Source of the DNA: Trueperaceae bacterium
Lineage (GTDB): Bacteria; Deinococcota; Deinococci; Deinococcales; Trueperaceae
Length of the DNA: 64,000 bases
Reading direction: 5' to 3'
NCBI GenBank assembly: GCA_965213925.1
Contig: OZ243927.1
Coordinates: forward strand, 3,456,001 to 3,520,000
The notes beneath the pieces were generated by a model that did no database searches, was not told the DNA's origin, and saw nothing but the letters and a program-made list of their open reading frames with translations. A program made the translations under genes and the position numbers. Position 1 is the first letter of the stretch, and each line of letters starts with the position of its first letter. Shown here piece by piece: positions 1 through 51,706 of the stretch.

Positions 1-31
1 TCGCAAGAGATGCGCGCAACTCGCGCACAAC
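1..31. repeat. 34-bp lox-like site #1 (left end cut by window edge)
   Basis: ...TCGCAAGAGA TGCGCGCA ACTCGCGCACAAC; matches the other copies. Confidence 0.75.
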
Positions 32-3818: not shown

Positions 3819-3852
3819 CTTTTGCGAGAGATGCGCGCGTCTGTTGCAGAAG
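3819..3852. repeat. 34-bp lox-like site #2
   Basis: CTTTTGCGAGAGA TGCGCGCG TCTGTTGCAGAAG. Confidence 0.85.
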
Positions 3853-5572: not shown

Positions 5573-5606
5573 CTTCTGCGCGAGTTGCGCGCAACTGTGT
5601 CCTTGA
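5573..5606. repeat. 34-bp lox-like site #3 (right arm degenerate)
   Basis: CTTCTGCGCGAGT TGCGCGCA ACTGTGTCCTTGA. Confidence 0.7.
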
Positions 5607-6416: not shown

Positions 6417-6450
6417 TTCGTGCGTGTGATGCGCGCGTCTCTCGCAGAAG
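6417..6450. repeat. 34-bp lox-like site #4
   Basis: TTCGTGCGTGTGA TGCGCGCG TCTCTCGCAGAAG. Confidence 0.85.
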
Positions 6451-7817: not shown

Positions 7818-7851
7818 CTTCTGCGCTTAACGCGCGCGTTTGTTGCAGAAT
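7818..7851. repeat. 34-bp lox-like site #5
   Basis: CTTCTGCGCTTAA CGCGCGCG TTTGTTGCAGAAT. Confidence 0.85.
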
Positions 7852-7881
7852 GGATCATCCGCTAAGTTCTGCATCATTCGC

Positions 7882-17753: not shown

Positions 17754-18300
17754 TACGCTGGTTGGCACAAAACGTGGCGCTAGGCGATTTTCTTTGCTCC
17801 AAACAGCCTTGGTTGCTCAAAATGACTTAGAGAAAATAAGCTCGGAAGGGGCAAGGCGGCGCGCATCTCGGTAAACGACCGTTTTTGCAATCTGTTCAGC
17901 GTCTGGCTGTGACTGGTTAAACCACCTACGCTCATTGCAACCGAGTTTCACTGTCAGATTTATCGTCTAATTCTATCCACAGGGCAGGTCGAATACCGCC
18001 ACTATCTTTAGGTCTGCCATAGACACCATCGCCACGAACATAAATACGTCCGTATCTATTTACACTGGCAGCAGTGCGACCATAATAGCCTGGTGAGCGA
18101 AGTCGCCACCAATAGAATTTACTTTATCTTCTTTAGTGACCCCGACGGCAACAGTTAGGCAGTGCAGCAAATCTCGAGCCGCAGTTGAACGAGGTAATTT
18201 TTATACGTGTGAACAGGCCGAGGCGTGCGTAAGTCTTCTGCGTGTGGTCGGGTAGCAGGAGACCGTCACTGGCCTCCCGCCCCTAAGAGCCGTGCGTGCG

Positions 18301-20736
18301 GTAGGGTAGGATGCCAGCGAGCTGCCTATCAAAGATAGCGCTTTTCCAACATCCCCCCTCCGAACCCCGCATGACCGCTTTCCGTGTCACGGGGCTCTCC
18401 AGTAATCTCAACATGAAAGTCCTTTCCCGTGGTAGTGCCCTTTATGGATGTCTTGGTGGCAGGTGAGGCAGACCACCAGCGTCTTGCGTCGGCGAGCCGA
18501 CATCCTTTGCATCCATTCGGGCCGTGACTTACGCCCTCTTTGTTCAAGGTCTGCCAGTTTTCGGACGTGATGCACTTCGACGTGCTCCACCGACCCACAA
18601 AGCTCACAGCTTTGCGCTAAAAGGCGGTCCACCACTTCATTACGCCCGTTCCAAATCTTACTGTTCTGGTTGTCGTCCAAGGCTACCCATTTGTTCCACC
18701 GTAACGGGATGCCGCCAAAGTGGGTGATGAGTGGCTTCTTTTTAGGACCACGGTCCACTTTGACTTGAAGGACTTTATAGCTGCCCTCCTTGAGGTCGAT
18801 GGTGGTGCGGTAGCGCCGATAGATTTTCTGGCAACTCGTCCTGAACTTATTCGCCAGCGTTTTCACTAGCGAGAGTTCTGTGACGCGCTTGAGTCGGCCC
18901 AGCGTGTGGAGGTTGTAGGCCATGCGGTAATACTGCACGACCCCGCGGTATTCCGCTTGATATTGGCTGACGATGCTGTAAGCATCGCTGCTGAGCCTTT
19001 GTGGGAGGTGAATGGGCTTGCCGCGTCGCATGTACTTGGCGCAGTGCGCTTTCATGACGTGCGACGGTACCCGGAGTCCGACGCTGCCGTTGATGCAGCG
19101 TTGTCCCCGGTGGTCGTGTTTATCGTCAGCGTGAAGAATGTGGACCTCATAGCCCAGGAAACGCGCTTTCTGCGTGCGCGCGTGGGTCAGCAGGGTCTTA
19201 TCCTCGCTAAGCTCAAGCTTGAGTTCGTCGCGTAAGAAGGCGGCAATCTCTTGCTTGATAGCCACGGCCTCGTCTTTTGGCCCTTTCAGCCCCAGCAGAA
19301 AGTCATCGGCATACCTTTGGTACCACAATCGCCGGAAGTTCGGGTCATCGGGGTCGCGCGACGGCATTGTCTGGGCCTGCTGGCTCAGTTGCCGCGCGGT
19401 CTCCCAGTTCCCTGCTTTCCGAGCGTCGTGAGCGGCTTTGGCGATGGCGACATACGGGGGGTAGGTCTTGCGGCGTTCGCCGCGTGTGTAAGCTGGTATC
19501 AGTTCGTGCTCGACAAACTTGTCCAGCCTGTCCAGAACCAGGTTGGTGAGGATTGGACCGACAATCGACCCTTGCGGCACACCGCTGTAGGTCTGGTGAA
19601 AGGTCCAGTTCTCCAGGTAGCCAGCTTCGAGCAGCCCCTTGATAAGCCGCAGGAAGCGGTTGTCGTGGAAGCTCTTCTGCAAGATGTTCAACAAGACATC
19701 GAAGTTAATCTTGTCGAAACACGAGCAGATATCTCCCTCGATAAACCACTTTGTACCTCGACCCTCTTGGGTGACTTTGCGCAAAGCTGTGTGGCATCCC
19801 CGTTTCGGTCGAAAGCCGTGAGAACGGTCGCTGAACCGCGGTTCATAATAGGCTTCCAGGATGGAGCGGATAACTTCTTGAAGAAGTTTGTCCGACCAGG
19901 AAGGCATCCCTAGAGGCCGCATCTTGCCATTCTTTTTGGGAATGTAACGGCGTCGTACCGGCGTCCACCGATACCGCTCTTGGCGTAGCGCCTCGATGAT
20001 GGTATCAATTTTCGCTAGGGACATCCCGTCCACGGTTTCGTCCGAGGCACCTGGTGTCAGTGCGCCTTCGTTCTTGTAGAGCTTGGCGTAGGCGCGCAGG
20101 TAGAGGTCAGGCCGGTAGAGTAGGCGATACACCCTTTTAACCGGCAGGCCACGCTGGCCGCGTTCACGTAGGATGGTGAGTACCGTTTCGGCGGTTCGCA
20201 TCTCGCGTACCTCACAGTTCCTTTCCATCATGATTACCTGGTCTCCTTCGCCCTGCGAACGGCTCTCCCGCTCTCCCTGGTGGGGCGTGACGCCCACGAC
20301 TACTACGAGACCTCCGTTACCTTAGGACTCGCGTCCCTTAGGCAATCCCGTGTTTCGTCACTGAGGAACGTGCTAGAACGACTTAGGCTCGCCACTCATA
20401 GCCTTGGATGAACTCATTGTTCATCGCCCATCAAGCAGAGCGTCATTTGGACGAAACTTGAATCCAAATGTCCTGATGGCGTCGGTGTACAGACGTGCTA
20501 CCGACGGGTGTGCGTGACCACCGCTGGCTATTGGCGTTCAAACAATCCAGTCTTAGCCTTATCATTCAGGCGTTGCAGAGCCGCATCGTACACGTCTTCC
20601 TTTGCGCTCCGCTTTAATGCCATGCTCTTGTCCCCTCCCTCCTTTCGAGCTCAGGTTAGGCATCCGCCTCGGGGTCGTTTGCCCTGAACCCCGGCCAACT
20701 CCGTTGGCAATTCACTCAATGCGCACCACGGCGCAC
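18301..20736 (-). mobile_element. Inner group II intron (IIA, mitochondrial-like/Ll.LtrB type), apparently intact
   Basis: 5' GTGCGCCGTG at 20736; DV GAGCCCCGTGACACGGAAAGCGGTCATGCGGGGTTC; 3' ...CCTACCCTAC at 18301. Confidence 0.9.
18408..20201 (-). CDS. ltrA: Group II intron reverse transcriptase/maturase with HNH endonuclease
   Basis: IPKKNGKMRPLG, HGFRP, GVPQGS, RYADD, C-terminal CELC..EVHH..CLTCH. Confidence 0.95.
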   Translation of the reverse strand: MRTAETVLTILRERGQRGLPVKRVYRLLYRPDLYLRAYAKLYKNEGALTPGASDETVDGMSLAKIDTIIEALRQERYRWTPVRRRYIPKKNGKMRPLGMPSWSDKLLQEVIRSILEAYYEPRFSDRSHGFRPKRGCHTALRKVTQEGRGTKWFIEGDICSCFDKINFDVLLNILQKSFHDNRFLRLIKGLLEAGYLENWTFHQTYSGVPQGSIVGPILTNLVLDRLDKFVEHELIPAYTRGERRKTYPPYVAIAKAAHDARKAGNWETARQLSQQAQTMPSRDPDDPNFRRLWYQRYADDFLLGLKGPKDEAVAIKQEIAAFLRDELKLELSEDKTLLTHARTQKARFLGYEVHILHADDKHDHRGQRCINGSVGLRVPSHVMKAHCAKYMRRGKPIHLPQRLSSDAYSIVSQYQAEYRGVVQYYRMAYNLHTLGRLKRVTELSLVKTLANKFRTSCQKIYRRYRTTIDLKEGSYKVLQVKVDRGPKKKPLITHFGGIPLRWNKWVALDDNQNSKIWNGRNEVVDRLLAQSCELCGSVEHVEVHHVRKLADLEQRGRKSRPEWMQRMSARRRKTLVVCLTCHQDIHKGHYHGKGLSC

Positions 20737-20771
20737 ACTTTCACCGCACACGGCTCAAGCCAATCACGAAG

Positions 20772-20906
20772 CTACCGCGATAAGCTCGTAGTAGCCCTGA
20801 AGATTCGCCCTCTCAGATTGCGAACCCGCCAATTGACAGCTCGCCAGTTCACAGCGTGCCAGTCCGTAGGTCCTTCGGTTTCGTTTGCAGAGCTTCGGGC
20901 TCGCAT
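20772..20906 (-). pseudogene. 44-codon N-terminal stub of the outer intron RT (RVT_N-like)
   Basis: MRARSSANETEGPTDWHAVNWRAVNWRVRNLRGRIFRA..*, ending just before DV. Confidence 0.7.
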
Positions 20907-21639
20907 CTAACTTCCCCTTAGTTGGCAACCTTCAGAACATCTCTCTAGGAGATTGACCAGTCCCACGTCAGCACCCTTTCGGGTTGAGTATCGGCTCTAT
21001 CTAGCCCCTTATGATTTCGGGTCGCCTTTCGGCGGCTAGCCTTCGCTTCTTGGGACCTCCTATGCCCGCTGGAGCGTTCGGCGTTCCTTACGGTTCGCTT
21101 ACCTGCAACAGGACTCCAACGGGGTTTCCGTGTTCCACTTGTGTGAGCTGCGACCGGGTTAGGCGTGCTCTCTACTCCGGGGTCATGGTGTCCTCGTGCA
21201 GAACGCGCGTACTCTCTGCACCTGTTGAGGCGAGATACCTTATCCTTAGCCTCGACCCGACCATGCCTTATCAACCATCCTTCGACAAACCGAACTAACG
21301 GAGCTTTGACCGAGCATTCACGTTCGTTCGCCTTACCGGTCTTTCCCTCACCCGAGTCTCTACGATGGTTTAGATTCTCTTAGGCTTTACCTCCAGCTTC
21401 ACACCTTGCCATTACTGGCAACGCATGTGGAAGTCGGGAATGAGCCTGGACACTGGCTCAGAGTTCTTTTCCTCCTTCCTAACTCACTCACTTCAAGCGA
21501 CTTCACGTCGCACACGCGCGCGTTAGTCGCAGCAGGATAGAGATTCTAAATGTCCGGAGAGCAACCCCTTTCCAAAAGAAAAGCCGTAGAAAATATCGAA
21601 CAAAGCTGAGCTTCAACGCGCCTTAGAAATCGGAAAACT

Positions 21640-29597: not shown

Positions 29598-29709
29598 CCT
29601 ATTCGTGCAGTAAACTTCTATGACAATATGTACTGAACGGTCAATAGATTGTGGTTCCTTTGATCTCTGCGGAATAACTGCGTATTTCAGCCTAATTTGA
29701 CTATTGATT

Positions 29710-31401
29710 GGCTCTTACGAAAGTTGTGTGGTCAGGCAGCCAGCAGCACCTTTTGCCTGAGCAGGTCAAAGCTAGCGCGTCCATACATCTGCCGCTTGAG
29801 CAACTTGAGCTTAGTAATTTTACCCTCGGTCGGTCCATTGCTCCACGGCAGAGTTAATGCCACTTCGATAGCCGCCTTATCGTTGCTGAAACCTTTCGCC
29901 AAGCGAGCGAGTTCATCAACGCCGCTCGCTCTTTATGGTGTCGCTGAGCCAGCGTTGAAACGCCGCTATAGTTTCATGGGGTGCTCGTTCCTTGCACCTG
30001 AATAGCGCGACGAAGCGTTGCACCAGGTCGTAGCAACGCTCCGCTTCTTGCGCACCCTCGAAGAGCCGCTCGAGTCGTTTGAAATCGTGCTGAGTTAGCG
30101 CCCCTTTTGAGCTTGTAAATAAGCGCGTCGCCTCATACGCCGAATAACGCATGACCCTTTGTCTCTTGTCTGCCCTCGAAAAGTCAATGCCCGCTTCCAA
30201 CTCGGCAAAGTAGGCGTAGACGAGACCATAAGCACCGGTGAAGCCCCGCGCCGTGATCTCCCGGTAGAGCTGCATCTTGTTGCCGATGCCCGCATCCCAT
30301 CTTTGTTTGAGATAGGGTTCGTAGGGCGCTAAGATGCGATTTTTCTGTCTATCAGGATACGTACCCCGAGCAAACCAACGGCTCAGCGTGCTCCTGCCGA
30401 CACCGAGCTTGGCAGCAATCTTAGGAAGACTAAAGCCGTCCGCTTCTAAACGCTTGGCTTCTTCGAAGATGGCTCGGCGTTTGCGGCGCGTCTCGAGCTT
30501 CGCTTGCAGCGCCCTTTCGTAGCTGGTGCGGACGTGAATCTGCTGAGGCACATCGCCGCCAGATTCGTGTCCATCATCAGAAAGCTCAACCAGATACTTT
30601 TTATGGCGCTCGCACCAGCGTTTCAAGAGGTCGCTGAAGTTTTTGAGCAGATGCCAACGGTCGGCGACCTGAACCGCTTGGGGTGCGCCCTCGTCGCAAG
30701 CGGATTTGTATTCCTGAGAGCGATCGCGAGAGATGGTTTCGACGCTAGGATGCGCCTTTAGCCAGTCCACCAGGGTTGCTGAGCTTCTGTCGGGTAGAAC
30801 GTCGACCACTTCGCGTTTTTCCAGGTCAAGCAACAGGGTGCCGTAACTTTCCCGTTTCCGAATAGCAAAATCGTCCACACCCAGCACGCGCGGTGTTGCT
30901 CGTGTCACTAAGCTCTGGGTTCGGACAAGGTCGAGCGCGCTATCGTGGCTCACAGGCATCTCTAACTGTCCGAGCAGGTCTTCGCTCGCTTTAGCGCTTA
31001 GAGAGGTCGCCACACGACGTTGCGCGTCGCTCAAGCGTTTGCTTCTATGTGCGTAACGCGCCAGCCAGGGGTCGAAAGACTCTGCGAACGTTCTTCTCTC
31101 ACAGCAACGATTTAAGCAGTAGAACCGTTTGTCTTTGAGACGCAACTGAACTGTGTGATCAGCCAGGGGCAAATCAGCAGGATGGCGTTGGTAGTAACCA
31201 CTTACCTTGTTTGATAGCGCCTGGCAGAGCGGACAATTCGCCTCCGTTTTACGTGAGCCGTGAGCACCAAACCACCTTCGCGAACTTTGAACGCTTCGAT
31301 GACACACGCTGGAAACAGGATATCGAGCATCCTTCATGCTGTTCGCTAGCCCTTCAAGATGCAAGACCCAACCCAGTTCCCACAATTCTTTCGTAAGAGC
31401 C
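29710..31401 (-). mobile_element. ISL3-family insertion sequence with frameshifted transposase (29732-31330)
   Basis: IRs GGCTCTTACGAAAG at both ends; CP.C, LGVDDFA, ISRDRS..Y, QVADRWHL, WSNGPTEG..KLKLLKRQMYGRA; frameshifts near 31250 and 29925. Confidence 0.9.
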
Positions 31402-31460
31402 ATCAAGTGCCCAAATTAGATGGTATACGCAATAATGGAAAGGCTCGGGTGCGTAGCGTC

Positions 31461-31494
31461 CTTGTGCAACGAACGCGCGCGTTAAACGCAGAAG
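31461..31494. repeat. 34-bp lox-like site #7
   Basis: CTTGTGCAACGAA CGCGCGCG TTAAACGCAGAAG. Confidence 0.85.
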
Positions 31495-31562
31495 GGTGTG
31501 CGCTTGGCTGGAAAAGTATCCAGCCAAGCGCACACCCTCTTCAAACTTTTCGGTCTGCTAGC

Positions 31563-32312
31563 TTAGAGCTGACTCATCCCACCATCCGCCGCAATTTCGG
31601 TGCCGAGGATGAACGAGGCGTCGTCCGAGGCTAGAAAGGTGACGACCTTAGCGATCTCTTGGGACGTGCCAAAGCGCTTCATCGGAATCTGCTCTAAGAT
31701 GCCTGCCGCCATCCCTTGTATTTGCGCCTCATCCATACCCAGCTTGCCGTAGAAGGGCGTTTCCACAGGACCGGGGCTTACCGCGTTCACCCGGATGTTT
31801 CTAGACAGGAGTTCCGCCGACACGGTGCGGATGAGGCTGAGTAGCGCGGCCTTGCTCGCGGCGTAAACCGTGGTCATGGGCATCCCGATATGAGCGTTGA
31901 TCGAGGTGTTGAGCACGATGGACGCGCCATCGTTCATGTGGGGAAGCGCTTTCTGGATGGTGAAGTACGCGCCTTTGAAGTTGACGTCCATGATCCTATC
32001 GAAGTCCTCCTCCGTCATCTCGCTGAGCGGCTTGAGTACCGCTAACCCTGCGTTGACAAAGAGGATATCGACCTTTCCGAAGGCTTCTCGGGTCTGTTCG
32101 AAGAGACGGTCTAAATCGCTGAGCTTAGTAACATCCGCTCTTACTGCTATGGCGTCGCCACCTATCTCGTGCGCCGCCTTCTCTAGTGCTCCTTCGTCCC
32201 GCCCCGAGATGACAACCTTCGTACCTAGGCGTACAAGTTCAGCCGCCGTCGCTCGCCCGATGCCGCTATTACCGCCCGTGATGACAGCGACTTTGTCGGT
32301 TAAGTCAGGCAT
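31563..32312 (-). CDS. SDR oxidoreductase
   Basis: TGGNSGIG, YAASK. Confidence 0.92.
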   Translation of the reverse strand: MPDLTDKVAVITGGNSGIGRATAAELVRLGTKVVISGRDEGALEKAAHEIGGDAIAVRADVTKLSDLDRLFEQTREAFGKVDILFVNAGLAVLKPLSEMTEEDFDRIMDVNFKGAYFTIQKALPHMNDGASIVLNTSINAHIGMPMTTVYAASKAALLSLIRTVSAELLSRNIRVNAVSPGPVETPFYGKLGMDEAQIQGMAAGILEQIPMKRFGTSQEIAKVVTFLASDDASFILGTEIAADGGMSQL

Positions 32313-33250
32313 CACTCGCCTCCTAGGAACTCGAGCAATCGCTCTGTGAATACCTCAGGTACTTCTTCAGGCACCCAGTGCCCCGAGCCTTCAATCATAC
32401 CACCTTGTACGTTCTCGGCATAGGCTTTTACCTGTTGAGGGACGAAGCCACCCAAGCTACCCTCAGCTCCCAGGGCGAGTACTAGCATAGTCAGCGGGGT
32501 CTGCGCATAAACCTCGTTCTGCGCTACGTCCTCTGGGAAGGCACGGAAGTAGTCGAAGCTCGCTTTTAGCTTGCCAGGCTGCGCGTAGGTGCGGGCGTAT
32601 TCGGCAAAGTCGGCGTCGGTAAAGCCCTCTTGATTGACCGTTAAGGCGCGAACGAATTGCTCCAGGAAGTATTGCTCTTGCCCGGCAATGATTGTTTCGG
32701 GCATCTCAGGGAAGCTGAAGAATCCGAAGTTCCACGCGCCAAAGCCCGTCTCGGTGATGGCAGGAAAGGTGTAAATGCTGGCGTCGGGAATAGGCGCTTC
32801 GACCAGCGCAAGGCGGCGCACCTCTTCCGGATAAGCGGCGGCGTAGGCGTAGGCAACCATCAGCCCGATATCATGCCCTACCAAGTTGATTTCACCGTCG
32901 CCGTACCCAAGGTCTTGAACCAGAGCGCGGATGCGTTCGGCGGTCGTCGCTTTGTCGAAGCCGCCCTCTGGTACCTCCGAGTCTCCGAGTCCTGGCAAGT
33001 CAGGGGCAATGACGGTGTAACGCTCGGCTAAGGCGGGCATCACCTTGCGCCACATATACCAGGTCGAGCCCCAGCCGTGTAGTAAGACTAAAGGTTCTCC
33101 TTCACCGCCGATGACATAGTGGAGTTCGCCCGCGTCCAGCTCAGCAACCTCACTGCTGAAGCCTTCCGGTAGGAGTGAAGGGTCGGGCTGAGCGAACGCG
33201 GTCGCCGCGAGAAGCACTAGCAGTAGAAAAGAACACCTGATGACTTTCAT
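32312..33250 (-). CDS. Secreted alpha/beta hydrolase (epoxide hydrolase-like)
   Basis: Signal peptide, HGWG, GHDIG, GHWVPEE; GGAGG RBS. Confidence 0.85.
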   Translation of the reverse strand: MKVIRCSFLLLVLLAATAFAQPDPSLLPEGFSSEVAELDAGELHYVIGGEGEPLVLLHGWGSTWYMWRKVMPALAERYTVIAPDLPGLGDSEVPEGGFDKATTAERIRALVQDLGYGDGEINLVGHDIGLMVAYAYAAAYPEEVRRLALVEAPIPDASIYTFPAITETGFGAWNFGFFSFPEMPETIIAGQEQYFLEQFVRALTVNQEGFTDADFAEYARTYAQPGKLKASFDYFRAFPEDVAQNEVYAQTPLTMLVLALGAEGSLGGFVPQQVKAYAENVQGGMIEGSGHWVPEEVPEVFTERLLEFLGGE

Positions 33251-34186: not shown

Positions 34187-34220
34187 GCTGTGCGTGAGTA
34201 GCGCGCGTTCGCCGCACAAT
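34187..34220. repeat. 34-bp lox-like site #8 (last copy seen)
   Basis: GCTGTGCGTGAGT AGCGCGCG TTCGCCGCACAAT. Confidence 0.75.
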
Positions 34221-34249: not shown

Positions 34250-34712
34250 AAGCTGAGGACCTCACTTTAAGGAGGTCGGTGATGCGTCCTTGCGCCCGTG
34301 TTCGTCAGCTAACCGAGGAAGAGTATAGGAACTCAAGCGTTGGGAACGCTCACGGACGATGGGGCTAGTTCACGGCGGGCACGCACCGTGCTGCAGTCGA
34401 ACCTAGGGTTGTCGGTACATGAGGTGGGCGAGAAGCTCGAGCTACACCACCAGACGGTGCGCAAGTGGGTGAACCGCTTCACGAAGCTGGGTATTCCTGG
34501 TTTAGAAGAAAGCCCGCGTCACGGGCGACCTCACATCTACAAAAGCGAGCATGTCGGCACTGTTATTCAAACGGCTTTAACGAAACCTGATGAGCTAGGT
34601 TTACCTTTTGGCGCTTGGACCCTCGACAGGCTGGTCGTCTACCTCAGTGAAGAGAAGGGCATCATGATGGGGCGCAGTCGCATGAGCGAAATCTTCAGGA
34701 ACGAGGGGCTCA
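34250..34712 (+). mobile_element. Truncated IS630-family transposase (N-terminal HTH part)
   Basis: TVRKWVNRF...GL...PRHGRP, P..LG.PF..WTL.RL; frameshifted, no DDE domain. Confidence 0.75.
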
Positions 34713-34826
34713 GGACAGGTGATCGCGTAAAGCGAAGTCGCGTGGTCCCGCTCCCGCTAGCCCCAACGGGCCGCTAGCGGGAACGCGCCACGCGTGACGC
34801 TTTGCCCGTTCTAGAGAGGATTTCGG

Positions 34827-48733: not shown

Positions 48734-48907
48734 CCAAACAGAAAAAGAGTCTAGCACAGGGCTCCTCGCGGGGTCAAGCCCAAAAGCGGCAGCTTGAGCG
48801 AGCTTCACCGCAAGCCCGCCCCAAAAATAGCGCGTCCACTCTTGCTATACTCTGAGGCGTTATGCAGCAAACAACGACATATCAGGTTACTCGGAAGGGG
48901 TACTCAC

Positions 48908-50104
48908 GTGGCGAAACTTAAAAGGATTCTGAGCGAGTTCTTGCTCGGCTTGGAGAAGGACTTTCACACCTTCCGCCGCCAGTTCAACCGCTTCCGGCGT
49001 GACCGCCCCTTTGACATCGTGCCGTACCTCTCCTACGGCTCGGCTTCGCGCGTCTACCTCAAGGGGCGCGTGACGGAGGACAAGAGCCTCGCCGTCGTCA
49101 CGCCCGACACCCCACGCTGGCGCAACTTCGTCAATACCTACAAGCGCTTCGTCAACGACAAGGTGCCTAACGCCCGCTTGGAAATCGACTTCGCAGGGCT
49201 CAAGCACGAGGTCACCACGGACGTTAAAGGCTACTACGAAACCTGGCTCGAGCCCCCTCCCGACTTCACCCCGCAGGACTGGCAAGAGGTCACCCTCACC
49301 CTTTTGGAGCCGCGCCGTGAGGGGATGGAACCGGCAGTCGCGACGGGCTCCGTCCTCTTCCCCTCGCAGAGTGCGCAGTTCGGCGTGATCAGCGACATGG
49401 ACGATACCGTCATCCAGACCGACGTGACCAAGTGGCTGCGCGTAGTTGGTACGGTTCTGTTCGGCAACGCCTACACGCGCTTGCCGTTTAAGGGCGTGGC
49501 GGCCTTTTACACCGCGCTGCAACAGGGCACGCGGGGCGGACATAACCCGCTCTTTTACGTCTCCAGTAGTCCTTGGAACCTCTACGACCTCATCTTGCGC
49601 CTCCTCAGAATCGAGGGCATCCCTTTGGGTCCCATTATGCTCCGCAACTGGCGCGGCGGCGGCGGCGAACTCTTCCCGAGTGAGCACGGCTCGTTCAAAA
49701 AGGGCGAGGTGCAGCGCATCTTAGAAACCTATAGCGACTTGGCCTTTATCTTGATCGGCGACTCCGGCGAGCAGGACCCCGAGATTTATAGCGACATCGT
49801 CGCGAGCTATCCGGGGCGCATCTTGGCGGTTTACATCCGCAACGTCAGCGAGAATGAGACGAGGGCAACGTCAATTCGTACGCTCGCGGAGAACGTGCAG
49901 ACGCACGGCAGCAAACTCGTGCTTGCCGACGACACCCTAGCCGCCGCCAAACACGCCGCCACCGAGGGCTGGATTTTAGAGAGCGCCCTGCCAAAGATTC
50001 GCGACCAGAAAACGAAACACGACGCGCTCTTCGAAGAGCACGAAGAGACGGTCGCGACCGTTTACGATACCTCATCCGACGTTCAACCCCTCGAGACCCG
50101 TTGA
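48908..50104 (+). CDS. App1/DUF2183 phosphatidate phosphatase-like protein
   Basis: ISDMDDT, YVSSSPWNLY, LIGDSGEQDPEIY. Confidence 0.88.
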   Translation: MAKLKRILSEFLLGLEKDFHTFRRQFNRFRRDRPFDIVPYLSYGSASRVYLKGRVTEDKSLAVVTPDTPRWRNFVNTYKRFVNDKVPNARLEIDFAGLKHEVTTDVKGYYETWLEPPPDFTPQDWQEVTLTLLEPRREGMEPAVATGSVLFPSQSAQFGVISDMDDTVIQTDVTKWLRVVGTVLFGNAYTRLPFKGVAAFYTALQQGTRGGHNPLFYVSSSPWNLYDLILRLLRIEGIPLGPIMLRNWRGGGGELFPSEHGSFKKGEVQRILETYSDLAFILIGDSGEQDPEIYSDIVASYPGRILAVYIRNVSENETRATSIRTLAENVQTHGSKLVLADDTLAAAKHAATEGWILESALPKIRDQKTKHDALFEEHEETVATVYDTSSDVQPLETR

Positions 50105-50512: not shown

Positions 50513-50590
50513 TGATACTATGACGTTCCTCACGAATAATAGATATAACATCGTAATAAAAATAGCGACACGAACGACATGGAGGGTAGC

Positions 50591-51706
50591 ATGGCAAGCT
50601 GGAAAAGAGCGATTCACAACCTCGAGGTCCGCGTAGACCGCTTCCGCAACGAGCTTAAAAACCGCTACAGCGACGACCCCGTAACCGTCCAGCCCTATAT
50701 CGGCTACGGCACGAAGGAGCGCCTTTACGTGCGCGGTCGCGTGTTGGAGGAAAAGGCGCTCTCCCAAGCAGACGCCGACGCCTCCGCCTGGGAGAACTTC
50801 GGCAGCGCCTGGAAGCGCTTCCGGAGCGAAGAGGTGCCCAAAGCCCGCGTGAAACTCCGCCTGAGCGGGCGCGAGCACGAAACGACGACCGACGACGAAG
50901 GGTTTTTCTCGCTCTGGCTCGAAGCGCCTACGCCACTGCCGCCGAGCGACGAAGGGTTTTACCACGTGGAGGCGGAACTCTTAGAACCGCTGCGCGGCTC
51001 CACGCCGCCCGAACTCGCGCGCGTCCCCGTCGCCGTGCCCGAAGAAAACGCGCAGTTCGGCATCATCAGCGACATGGACGACACCGTGTTGCAAACCGGC
51101 GCGACCAACGTCATCGGCATGGCGAAAAAGGTGCTCTTCGGCAACGCGAAGACGCGCGTCCCCTTCGAGGGCGTGTCCGCCTTTTACGACGCGCTCCAAC
51201 ACGAACAGAACCCAATTTTTTACGTGTCCAGTAGCCCCTGGAACCTCTACGACTTGCTCGTCGAATTTTTAGAGACCAACGACATCCCGGTCGGTCCTAT
51301 CATGCTCCGCGACTGGGGCATCTCCCCTACCGAACTCCTACCGACCTCGCACAGCGGTCACAAGCGTGAGGCGCTCGACCAGATTTTAGAGACCTACCCC
51401 GACCTGCCCTTCATCTTGATCGGCGACAGCGGGCAAGAGGACCCCGAAATCTACCAGAGCGTCGTCCACGACTATCCGGGGCGCATCTTAGGCGTCTATA
51501 TCCGCAGCGTCCACGAGGAGGAGGAGCGCAGTGAAAAGATTCAGACGCTCGCCCAAGAGGTTGAGAAAGCGGGCAGCCACCTCGTCTTGGCGAAAGACAC
51601 CCTGCAAGCGGCGGAGCACGCGGCGGCGCAGGGCTGGATCAGCATGGAGAGCATCGCGGAGGTAGGGCGCAGGAAGACGCGGGACGAACAAGAGGTATCG
51701 CTCTAG
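50591..51706 (+). CDS. Second App1/DUF2183 paralogue
   Basis: ISDMDDT, YVSSSPWNLY, LIGDSGQEDPEIY. Confidence 0.88.
   Translation: MASWKRAIHNLEVRVDRFRNELKNRYSDDPVTVQPYIGYGTKERLYVRGRVLEEKALSQADADASAWENFGSAWKRFRSEEVPKARVKLRLSGREHETTTDDEGFFSLWLEAPTPLPPSDEGFYHVEAELLEPLRGSTPPELARVPVAVPEENAQFGIISDMDDTVLQTGATNVIGMAKKVLFGNAKTRVPFEGVSAFYDALQHEQNPIFYVSSSPWNLYDLLVEFLETNDIPVGPIMLRDWGISPTELLPTSHSGHKREALDQILETYPDLPFILIGDSGQEDPEIYQSVVHDYPGRILGVYIRSVHEEEERSEKIQTLAQEVEKAGSHLVLAKDTLQAAEHAAAQGWISMESIAEVGRRKTRDEQEVSL

Follow-up and report, generated by a model that had tools for sequence, protein, structure and literature searches.

A 64,000-nucleotide stretch of the genome of a Trueperaceae bacterium (GenBank assembly GCA_965213925.1, contig OZ243927.1, positions 3,456,001 to 3,520,000; hereafter the window, whose own numbering is used throughout) carries a twintron, an outer group II intron with a second, inner group II intron nested inside it, on the minus strand at 21513..18247 and within one copy of a palindromic repeat. 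The anatomy of both introns, their boundaries, the pairings of the outer intron with its exons, and a family of further repeat copies can be read directly in the window. The best explanation of the locus, to which we assign a probability of about 60%, is that the outer intron homed by base pairing into this intergenic repeat and that the remaining copies represent a pool of targets. We infer the order of events, the supply of a reverse transcriptase (RT) in trans, and the role of the repeat family as a target pool.

A twintron splits one copy of an intergenic palindromic repeat

The outer intron amounts to 831 nt, in segments of 777 and 54 nt that flank an inner intron of 2436 nt (Table 1). 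Its 5′ part was recognised by the Rfam model group-II-D1D4-7 (21461-21376, minus strand; 39 bits, gathering score 34). The domain V/VI match in the region (Intron_gpII, 18399-18301, minus strand; 46 bits, gathering score 40) belongs to the inner intron, and the split domain V of the outer intron gave no Rfam match, as expected. The 5′ splice site of the outer intron lies between 21514 and 21513 (minus strand ...CTGCGACTAACGCGCGCGT / GTGCGAC..., the slash here and below marking the junction), the 5′ exon ending in ...CTGCTGCGACTAACGCGCGCGT at 21514. Its 3′ end, ...GCTACCCGAC at 18247 (CCCGAC), is the same in many related introns, and both boundaries fit the 5′ GUGYG / 3′ AY rule of group II introns.

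A second GTGCG start, at 20736, lies inside the outer element. The sequence directly preceding it, GAGCCGTGTGCGGTGAAAGT (20756-20737), is the 5′ half of the outer domain V, and CGCACGCACGGCTC (18300-18287), which directly follows the inner domain VI (...CCCTAC, 18301), is the 3′ half. Rejoined, the two halves agree at 33 of 34 positions with domain V sequences that are uninterrupted in other introns; in the predicted fold they pair with each other into a hairpin of 34 nt that has AGC close to its base, a bulged AC, and a GAAA (GNRA) loop, and the inner intron is inserted 2 nt past this loop. The outer domain VI forms a helix at 18283-18250 with an unpaired A at 18253, 6 nt ahead of the last nucleotide, the predicted branch point. 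On account of the second GTGCG start, the split domain V, and the second domain VI, the element is to be regarded as two introns and not one. A preliminary description of the window, made from its letters and open reading frames (ORFs), had correctly spoken of an “outer” intron; the nested one occupies 20736..18301. The outer ribozyme would now be able to fold only once the inner intron is spliced out, which is the usual logic of twintrons (PMC4424553).

The twintron sits in a palindromic repeat of 32-34 bp with the consensus TTCTGC-N5-ACGCGCGCGT-N5-GCAGAA. With the twintron removed (3′ splice site 18247/18246), the flanks reconstitute a full site, tGCTGC GACTA ACGCGCGCGT / CACAC GCAGAA, with one arm mismatch. 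The insertion point lies 5 nt from the dyad centre, 1 bp beyond the central CGCGCGCG, and so agrees with the earlier statement that the intron lies 1 bp outside the spacer of the site. That statement numbered the site as the sixth, and the interrupted copy is the sixth in order of eight found in the window, the others being five intact and two weak copies detected with a profile on both strands. The repeat pattern with at most 3 mismatches occurs four times in the window and in none of 100 shuffles. All eight copies are intergenic, that is, between called ORFs, and all lie in the left 35 kb, amid genes for hydrolases, small regulators, and transposases. The right half of the window, with housekeeping genes such as dnaX, recR, topA, ispH, and pgk, contains no copy, nor do 511 kb of unrelated genomic loci; searches of plasmid and phage collections with the repeat as query returned four partial matches with E values of at least 0.2, which we take as chance.

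Table 1 Features of the twintron, its recognition sequences, and the repeat family (window positions)
Feature	Position	Strand	Basis or remark
Outer group II intron, 5′ segment (domains I-IV and 5′ half of domain V)	20737..21513	-	777 nt
Outer intron, 3′ segment (3′ half of domain V 18300-18287, domain VI)	18247..18300	-	54 nt
Inner group II intron	18301..20736	-	GTGCGCC at 20736; own domain V/VI by Rfam
RT/maturase/HNH ORF of inner intron	18408..20231	-	607 aa from ATG at 20231; Pfam
RT ORF remnant of outer intron, domain IV	20772..20906	-	44 codons, then stop
EBS1 hairpin of outer intron; EBS1 ACGCGC at 21210-21205	21197..21220	-	Fold and alignment
EBS2a (T, 21297), spacer A, EBS2 GTTCG (21295-21291)	21291..21297	-	Family alignment columns 42, 44-48
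EBS3 (G), pairs with +1 C of 3′ exon	21172	-	Alignment column
Half of repeat copy 6, 5′-exon side (arm, N5, core ACGCGCGCGT)	21514..21535		Flank sequence
Half of repeat copy 6, 3′-exon side (CACAC GCAGAA G)	18235..18246		Flank sequence
Empty copy, best predicted target on + strand	31462..31493		Target scan
Empty copy, perfect consensus match; - strand third-best predicted target	7819..7850		Pattern, target scan
Empty repeat copy	3820..3851		Pattern and profile
Empty repeat copy	6418..6449		Pattern and profile
Empty repeat copy, more diverged (5 mismatches)	34188..34219		Profile
Weak copy with left arm and core; right arm lost or degenerate	5574..5605		Profile
Repeat copy cut by left window edge	1..30		Profile (3-30), weak

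Conservation within the repeat is confined to the arms and the GC core; the N5 segments vary and are not complementary to each other within one copy. Folded as single-stranded DNA, the five intact copies show no extra stability relative to shuffles (z = -0.64, -0.42, 0.14, -0.32, and 0.13), and the sequence beside the sites contains no consistent hairpin or shared motif. Given the conserved arms, the conserved GC core, the variable N5 segments, and the lack of a stable hairpin, the repeat looks more like a double-stranded protein-binding site than like a hairpin element.

Two classes of recombination site were compared with the repeat, which lacks the features tested. Integron attC sites have an R″/L″...L′/R′ architecture, an R′ box of the form GTTRRRY, and a length of about 57-141 bp, and belong with an integron integrase or a cassette array; the repeat is too short at 32-34 bp, GTTRRRY by eye fits only some copies, and no integrase family is among the Pfam hits of 59 ORFs. 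Tyrosine-recombinase sites of the 13-8-13 kind consist of conserved 13-bp inverted arms around an asymmetric spacer and have a cognate recombinase, whereas conservation here is limited to the core and to the outer 6 bp of each arm, the N5 segments vary, and the central 8 bp are palindromic. Recombinase, integrase, and Y1 transposase families are absent from the Pfam hits of the 59 window ORFs scanned. With no recombinase family among these hits and with both site comparisons negative, the earlier view of the repeat as a recombination-type site received no support, and its companion argument, that occupancy by an intron supports the repeat being a functional element, carries little weight, as the presence of an intron says little about function.

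Other elements were observed close to repeat copies. A transposase ORF (29916-31406) lies within an ISL3-family element at 29692-31419 that has imperfect inverted repeats of 40 nt and terminates 42 bp away from the copy at 31462. Near the copy at 34188, at a distance of ~120 bp, there is an ORF (34340-34777) for a helix-turn-helix protein of transposase type. Mobile elements of several kinds may be drawn to the repeat. A perfect inverted repeat of 20 bp around a loop of 6 nt (31493-31538) also abuts the copy at 31462 and is probably the terminator of the dehydrogenase gene at 31563-32315 (minus strand). An extra arm-like TTCTGCA is found at 7867-7881, 17 nt past the copy at 7819.

Recognition sequences of the outer intron and their targets

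The exon-binding sites (EBS) of the outer intron were mapped by comparison with 12 related introns whose 5′ end, 3′ end, and exons could be fixed. These relatives, from the plasmid collection and a genome scan, are 65-75% identical to it from the 3′ part of domain I up to and including domain III. In the family alignment, the helices enclosing the D subdomain comprise 14 predicted pairs, eight of them with compensatory changes.

The stem-loop that had been reported at 21197-21220 is present as described: TGCAGA, loop GAGTACGCGCGT, TCTGCA (21220-21197). Its ACGCGC, intron nt 304-309, lies in a terminal loop just upstream of a conserved ...GACACC... block. EBS1-type hairpin loops in the family lie 268-321 nt from the intron 5′ end. 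Such a loop is complementary to the intron’s own last six exon nucleotides (score of at least 11/12) in eight of 21 introns, the outer intron included, compared with 14% for swapped exons, and in seven of the 12 aligned relatives. Since ACGCGC falls within the EBS1 loop of the family, its identification as EBS1 in the preliminary description was right, and this is borne out by the comparison of the relatives’ loops with their own exons and not by a single fold. Likewise, the intron-binding site (IBS) then named, IBS1 GCGCGT, proved to be the conserved core of the repeat.

The remaining recognition nucleotides were located by the same comparison. In the family pattern, a conserved CGU is followed by EBS2a, which a single nucleotide separates from a 5-nt EBS2. 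Eleven of the 12 relatives have a Watson-Crick match between EBS2a and exon position -14 (27% in the swapped-exon control), and in nine of 12 at least four of the five EBS2 positions pair with -13..-9 (control 8%). EBS3 occupies an alignment column in the internal loop that follows the EBS1 hairpin; ten of 12 relatives have a nucleotide there that is Watson-Crick to +1 (control 26%). One Rhizobium relative (L001), in which EBS2a pairs with its own exon and EBS1, EBS2, and EBS3 do not, was kept in these counts. According to published work, introns of the IIB1/IIB2 groups follow a rule of a 5-bp EBS2-IBS2 pairing at -13..-9 and an EBS2a-IBS2a pairing at -14 (Monachello et al., PMC8643678). Judged by the EBS2a/EBS2/EBS3 arrangement in the family alignment, the outer intron is a IIB-type (IIB1/IIB2) group II intron, as had been proposed.

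The stem of the EBS1 hairpin, TGCAGA/TCTGCA, shares hexamers with the repeat arms TTCTGC/GCAGAA, in swapped order. The EBS1 stems of the relatives have unrelated sequences, and the sharing may be chance, at a roughly estimated 1 in 500 or rarer. An extended pairing of this stem with the arms of the site was considered and rejected, as the strands have the same sense and are not complementary.

Against the occupied target, 12 of the 13 recognition positions of the outer intron are paired. EBS1 ACGCGC pairs with GCGCGT at 6/6 positions, a pairing that by eye, and unscored, could be extended to eight through the next two loop nucleotides with one G-U; EBS2a U pairs with A(-14), and EBS3 G with C(+1). 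When the 13 recognition nucleotides were compared with every position of the window, the twintron having been removed in silico, the best three of the 111 GCGCGT positions were all repeat copies: 31462 (+), the occupied copy, and 7819 (-). The site at 31462 (A CGAAC gc GCGCGT / T) offers 12 Watson-Crick pairs and one G-U of 13 and thereby surpasses the occupied copy, which is the expectation if the intron came from a CGAAC-type copy. The site at 7819 offers 11 Watson-Crick pairs and one G-U of 13.

The outer intron no longer encodes an RT. The remnant of an RT ORF in its domain IV is identical at 26 of 36 positions (72%) to the N-terminus of LtrA from a Rhizobium plasmid intron (E = 3e-15), and since the intron lacks an RT and keeps a 44-codon start, it is taken as a deletion derivative. 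With these 44 codons kept, the domain IV region expected to hold the RT binding site may survive. Intron nt 323-721 are ~71% identical to RT-encoding introns of Rhizobium and Sinorhizobium plasmids; in the plasmid collection, relatives cover at most 51% of the query at ~71% identity, and the phage collection gave no match. A scan of genome contigs, with the 5′ half of the outer domain V containing one N as query, returned at least 111 loci, showing this sequence to be common across many phyla; among the matches listed, the best outer-intron relative is 75% identical over 243 nt. The outer intron contains a spurious ORF of 109 aa; a search for proteins resembling it gave one weak hit among three candidates, which is uninformative, and no ORF spans the outer 5′ junction. 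The RT of the inner intron is only 35% identical to that of the outer intron’s Rhizobium relative, from which we conclude that the two introns belong to different lineages.

In bacteria, introns without an ORF are almost invariably accompanied by related introns that encode an RT (PMC4424553). Among the relatives of the outer intron, three (L079, L009, and L043) have domain V only 685-753 nt from their 5′ end and are ORF-less like it; such forms may be commoner in this family than the bacterial literature suggests.

Proposed homing by base pairing, its alternatives, and known systems

Under the explanation we prefer, the outer intron, its RT gene lost by internal deletion, would have entered copy 6 through ordinary retrohoming, by reverse splicing between T(-1) and C(+1) guided by the EBS1, EBS2a, EBS2, and EBS3 pairings, with an RT acting in trans and encoded by a full-length relative at another locus of the genome. 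EBS1 and two EBS2 nucleotides, which pair with the AC of the core, would read the conserved core of the repeat. Because the core is read in this way, many near-identical homing sites would be on offer, and the repeat family could act as a pool of them in gene-free DNA. The inner intron, which belongs to another lineage and encodes RT, maturase, and HNH domains, would have come second, directed by an EBS1 and an EBS2 of its own to the loop region of the outer domain V; it presumably arrived after the outer intron because a twintron with a split domain V would be unable to splice, and so to move, as a unit. The many near-identical sites and the better fit of at least one empty copy suggest, without proving, that the outer intron moves among repeat copies.

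The main alternative is a one-off insertion, at an ordinary single homing site or ectopically, to which the membership of that site in a repeat family would be incidental, the intron lineage having no tie to the repeat. We regard it as possible, if rather doubtful. It would suit the presence of a single outer-intron copy in the window, the mismatch of EBS2 with the occupied site, and the fact that all 12 relatives examined lie in unrelated targets. Nor is IBS1 alone site-specific, since GCGCGT occurs 111 times in the GC-rich window. Several insertion sequence (IS) families are 100% linked to repetitive extragenic palindromes (REP elements), while group II introns in Pseudomonas putida KT2440 are so in only 2 of 9 copies (Tobes and Pareja, PMC1525189). 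On the other hand, the repeat copies make up an estimated ~250 bp of 64 kb, so that a random hit on one of them would be improbable, and the recognition nucleotides read the conserved core. In addition, a second copy matches EBS2a, EBS2, and EBS1 completely; the chance of a full EBS2a/EBS2 match among the eight other GCGCGT half-sites, with N5 bases treated as independent, is roughly estimated at ~4%. Two further alternatives fare much worse. Targeting guided by structure, in which the repeat would be read as a DNA hairpin with only short pairings, as in class C (IIC) or IIC-attC introns, is suggested by the palindromic site and by the hairpin motifs that class C introns use (PMC4424553, PMC12584367). 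We judge it very improbable, given that the five intact copies fold no better than shuffles, that the N5 segments of a copy are not mutually complementary, that a full EBS2/EBS2a/EBS3 set of the IIB kind is present, and that the insertion lies inside the palindrome and not after it; as the repeat folds no better than shuffles, recognition is better described as ordinary base pairing than as the reading of a hairpin. Least probable of all, to the point of being negligible, is a single very long intron (21513..18301 or ..18247) with no nesting. Rfam does find only one domain V in the region, but such an intron would have to accommodate a further GTGCG start (20736), an extra domain VI bearing a bulged A, split domain V halves equal to intact ones at 33 of 34 positions, and an RT remnant and an RT from different lineages, and the flanks restore the repeat only if the 3′ end is at 18247.

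Several observations weigh against homing into the repeat as we propose it. The EBS2 GUUCG pairs with CTAAC of the occupied site at four of five positions, C standing opposite T at -12. A register shifted by 3-4 nt (GUUAGU, 21299-21294) would by eye pair 6/6 with ACTAAC, so the statement that an empty copy fits better depends on the register given by the family alignment. The fit to other copies is also partly automatic because repeat copies resemble each other, and by eye eight half-sites of empty copies carry a perfect IBS1. The twintron is antisense to both neighbouring genes. The outer intron is present in a single copy, with no further copy or fragment in the window. No full-length RT-encoding relative of it occurs within these 64 kb, and no close relative was found in the plasmid and phage collections or among the genome matches listed; the inner RT, given its distance in sequence, is unlikely to serve the outer intron in trans.

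The preliminary description went further and proposed an intron specialised on the site. Specialisation would need several independent insertions, and a single intron copy cannot establish it. The flanks of the homologues, which are at most 75% identical and all lie in unrelated targets with which their EBS covary, speak neither for it nor against it. That a IIB lineage has tuned its EBS1, EBS2, and EBS3 to the core of an abundant repeat and spreads from copy to copy through base pairing alone, together with a second lineage homing into domain V, is a tentative proposal that we consider unlikely as it stands.

Class C introns encode an RT without an endonuclease domain. Three kinds of target are distinguished for bacterial introns, namely homing sites, terminator motifs, and attC sites, of which class C uses the latter two (Zimmerly and Semper, PMC4424553); outside class C, all bacterial lineages as a rule home through base pairing (PMC4424553). 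Within IIB, a IIB1 clade is tied to start and stop codons (Costa’s group, PMC12584367), and IIB introns lying after attC sites have been described (Sonbol and Siam, PMC7923331). Among these, the closest models for the outer intron are retrohoming IIB1/IIB2 introns such as EcI5 (PMC8643678), with which it shares the GUGCG 5′ end, a 5-nt EBS2 in a multi-branched loop, an EBS2a two nucleotides upstream of EBS2 that pairs with -14, an EBS1 in a terminal loop, an internal-loop EBS3 that pairs with +1, a domain V with AC bulge and GAAA loop, and a bulged A in domain VI. It differs from them in being ORF-less apart from 44 RT codons, in its interrupted domain V, and in a target that is a copy of a short palindromic repeat and not a unique gene or IS element. 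The case of the outer intron resembles an ordinary IIB homing event; its peculiarity lies in a homing site formed by the conserved core of a short repeat.

With class C and IIC-attC introns such as S.ma.I2, the outer intron has in common an abundant, repeated non-coding motif as landing place (PMC4424553). Those introns, however, rely on a DNA stem-loop and very short pairings without an EBS2, and insert after the motif (PMC4424553). The outer intron is of type IIB, has EBS2 and EBS2a within a 13-position pairing, and lies inside a palindrome that forms no stable hairpin; membership in class C or IIC-attC was therefore rejected. The parallel with class C-attC introns drawn in the preliminary description is accordingly a loose one, with full EBS1/EBS2/EBS3 pairing and no unusual hairpin stability.

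The IIB introns UHB.I2 and H.ha.F1/F2 of halophile cassette arrays also lie beside palindromic repeated sites and accessory genes (PMC7923331). They follow attC sites called by Integron Finder, whereas the repeat described here, at 32-34 bp, fails the attC features tested and is split by the intron. REP elements are imperfect palindromes of high copy number, often accompanied in the genome by a RAYT gene. They are likewise short, intergenic palindromic repeats hit by mobile elements (PMC1525189), and the repeat shares with them its palindromy and the intergenic position of all eight copies; it differs in that the window contains no Y1 (RAYT) transposase and in that its hairpin stability is not above that of shuffles. 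As for nesting, the Trichodesmium twintron has its inner intron in domain I (PMC4649490), in contrast to domain V here, and nested introns are also found in the archaeal genus Methanosarcina (summarised in PMC4424553). What sets the present case apart from these bacterial and archaeal twintrons is that relatives of the inner intron on Microvirga plasmids share the domain V position in other introns. In the literature searched, which covered few of the subscription journals, we found no description of a IIB intron that targets an intergenic palindromic repeat like this one, or of a lineage of introns that homes into domain V.

Should close copies of the outer intron prove to recur in the repeat, this would show that an abundant non-coding repeat can serve a IIB intron as a safe place to land. 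Landing would then be achieved with the ordinary base-pairing machinery, without the structural reading evolved by IIC introns, and would provide a natural case in which a single EBS set serves many targets in a genome. It would also constitute a fourth target strategy in bacteria, beside unique homing sites, terminators, and attC sites. The repeat, with its conserved arms and GC core and no stable hairpin, deserves a study of its own.

The inner intron and other features of the window

The ORF of the inner intron contains the Pfam domains RVT_1 (4e-34), Intron_maturas2 (1e-10), and an AI2M-like HNH domain (8e-14). From the look of its N-terminus, the inner RT may belong to the “mitochondrial-like (ML) lineage”. 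The recognition sequences of the inner intron fit the outer domain V strand at 11 of 12 positions: EBS2 CGCACA (nt 223) pairs 6/6 with -14..-9 (TGTGCG), and the EBS1 loop AGTTTC (nt 279) pairs 5/6 with -6..-1 (GAAAGT).

For the inner intron, the plasmid and phage collections yielded only relatives of 64-68% identity. Of the seven lineage members examined, three are inserted in domain V of a different group II intron, 2 nt past its loop. Besides the intron in the window, these are on plasmids of Microvirga lotononidis (NZ_CP141049.1; L115, 1401 onward), where EBS1 and EBS2 of the guest, at positions equivalent to those in the window copy, each pair 5/6 with their target, and of M. ossetica (NZ_CP016618.1; L116, 3154 onward), where the guest occupies the same domain V position; both are 64-66% identical in nucleotides to the inner intron. 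The targets of the remaining four members are codons resembling motifs of transposases or a site close to the end of an HU gene, these motif labels having been assigned by eye. Among the domain V matches listed from the genome scan, at least 111, none carries a guest at the position of the inner intron; by eye, 108 run on into an intact 3′ half and three look like chance.

On these sequence comparisons, the inner lineage may home into domain V of other introns. The position shared between the window and the two Microvirga plasmids points to homing into the most conserved part of an intron, and a lineage that does so would be an intron preying on introns: insertion into domain V would disable the host intron and make it dependent on its guest. 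A Microcoleus sp. contig (L027, ~44-100) has a domain V match followed immediately by TGTGCGG in place of a domain VI, and may represent another nested intron, between domains V and VI.

Elsewhere in the window, two genes with APP1-type phosphatidate phosphatase domains (48794-50104 and 50579-51706) adjoin each other. The stretches 49331-49858 and 51008-51523 are 72-85% identical in DNA sequence, and the pair is a tandem gene duplication.

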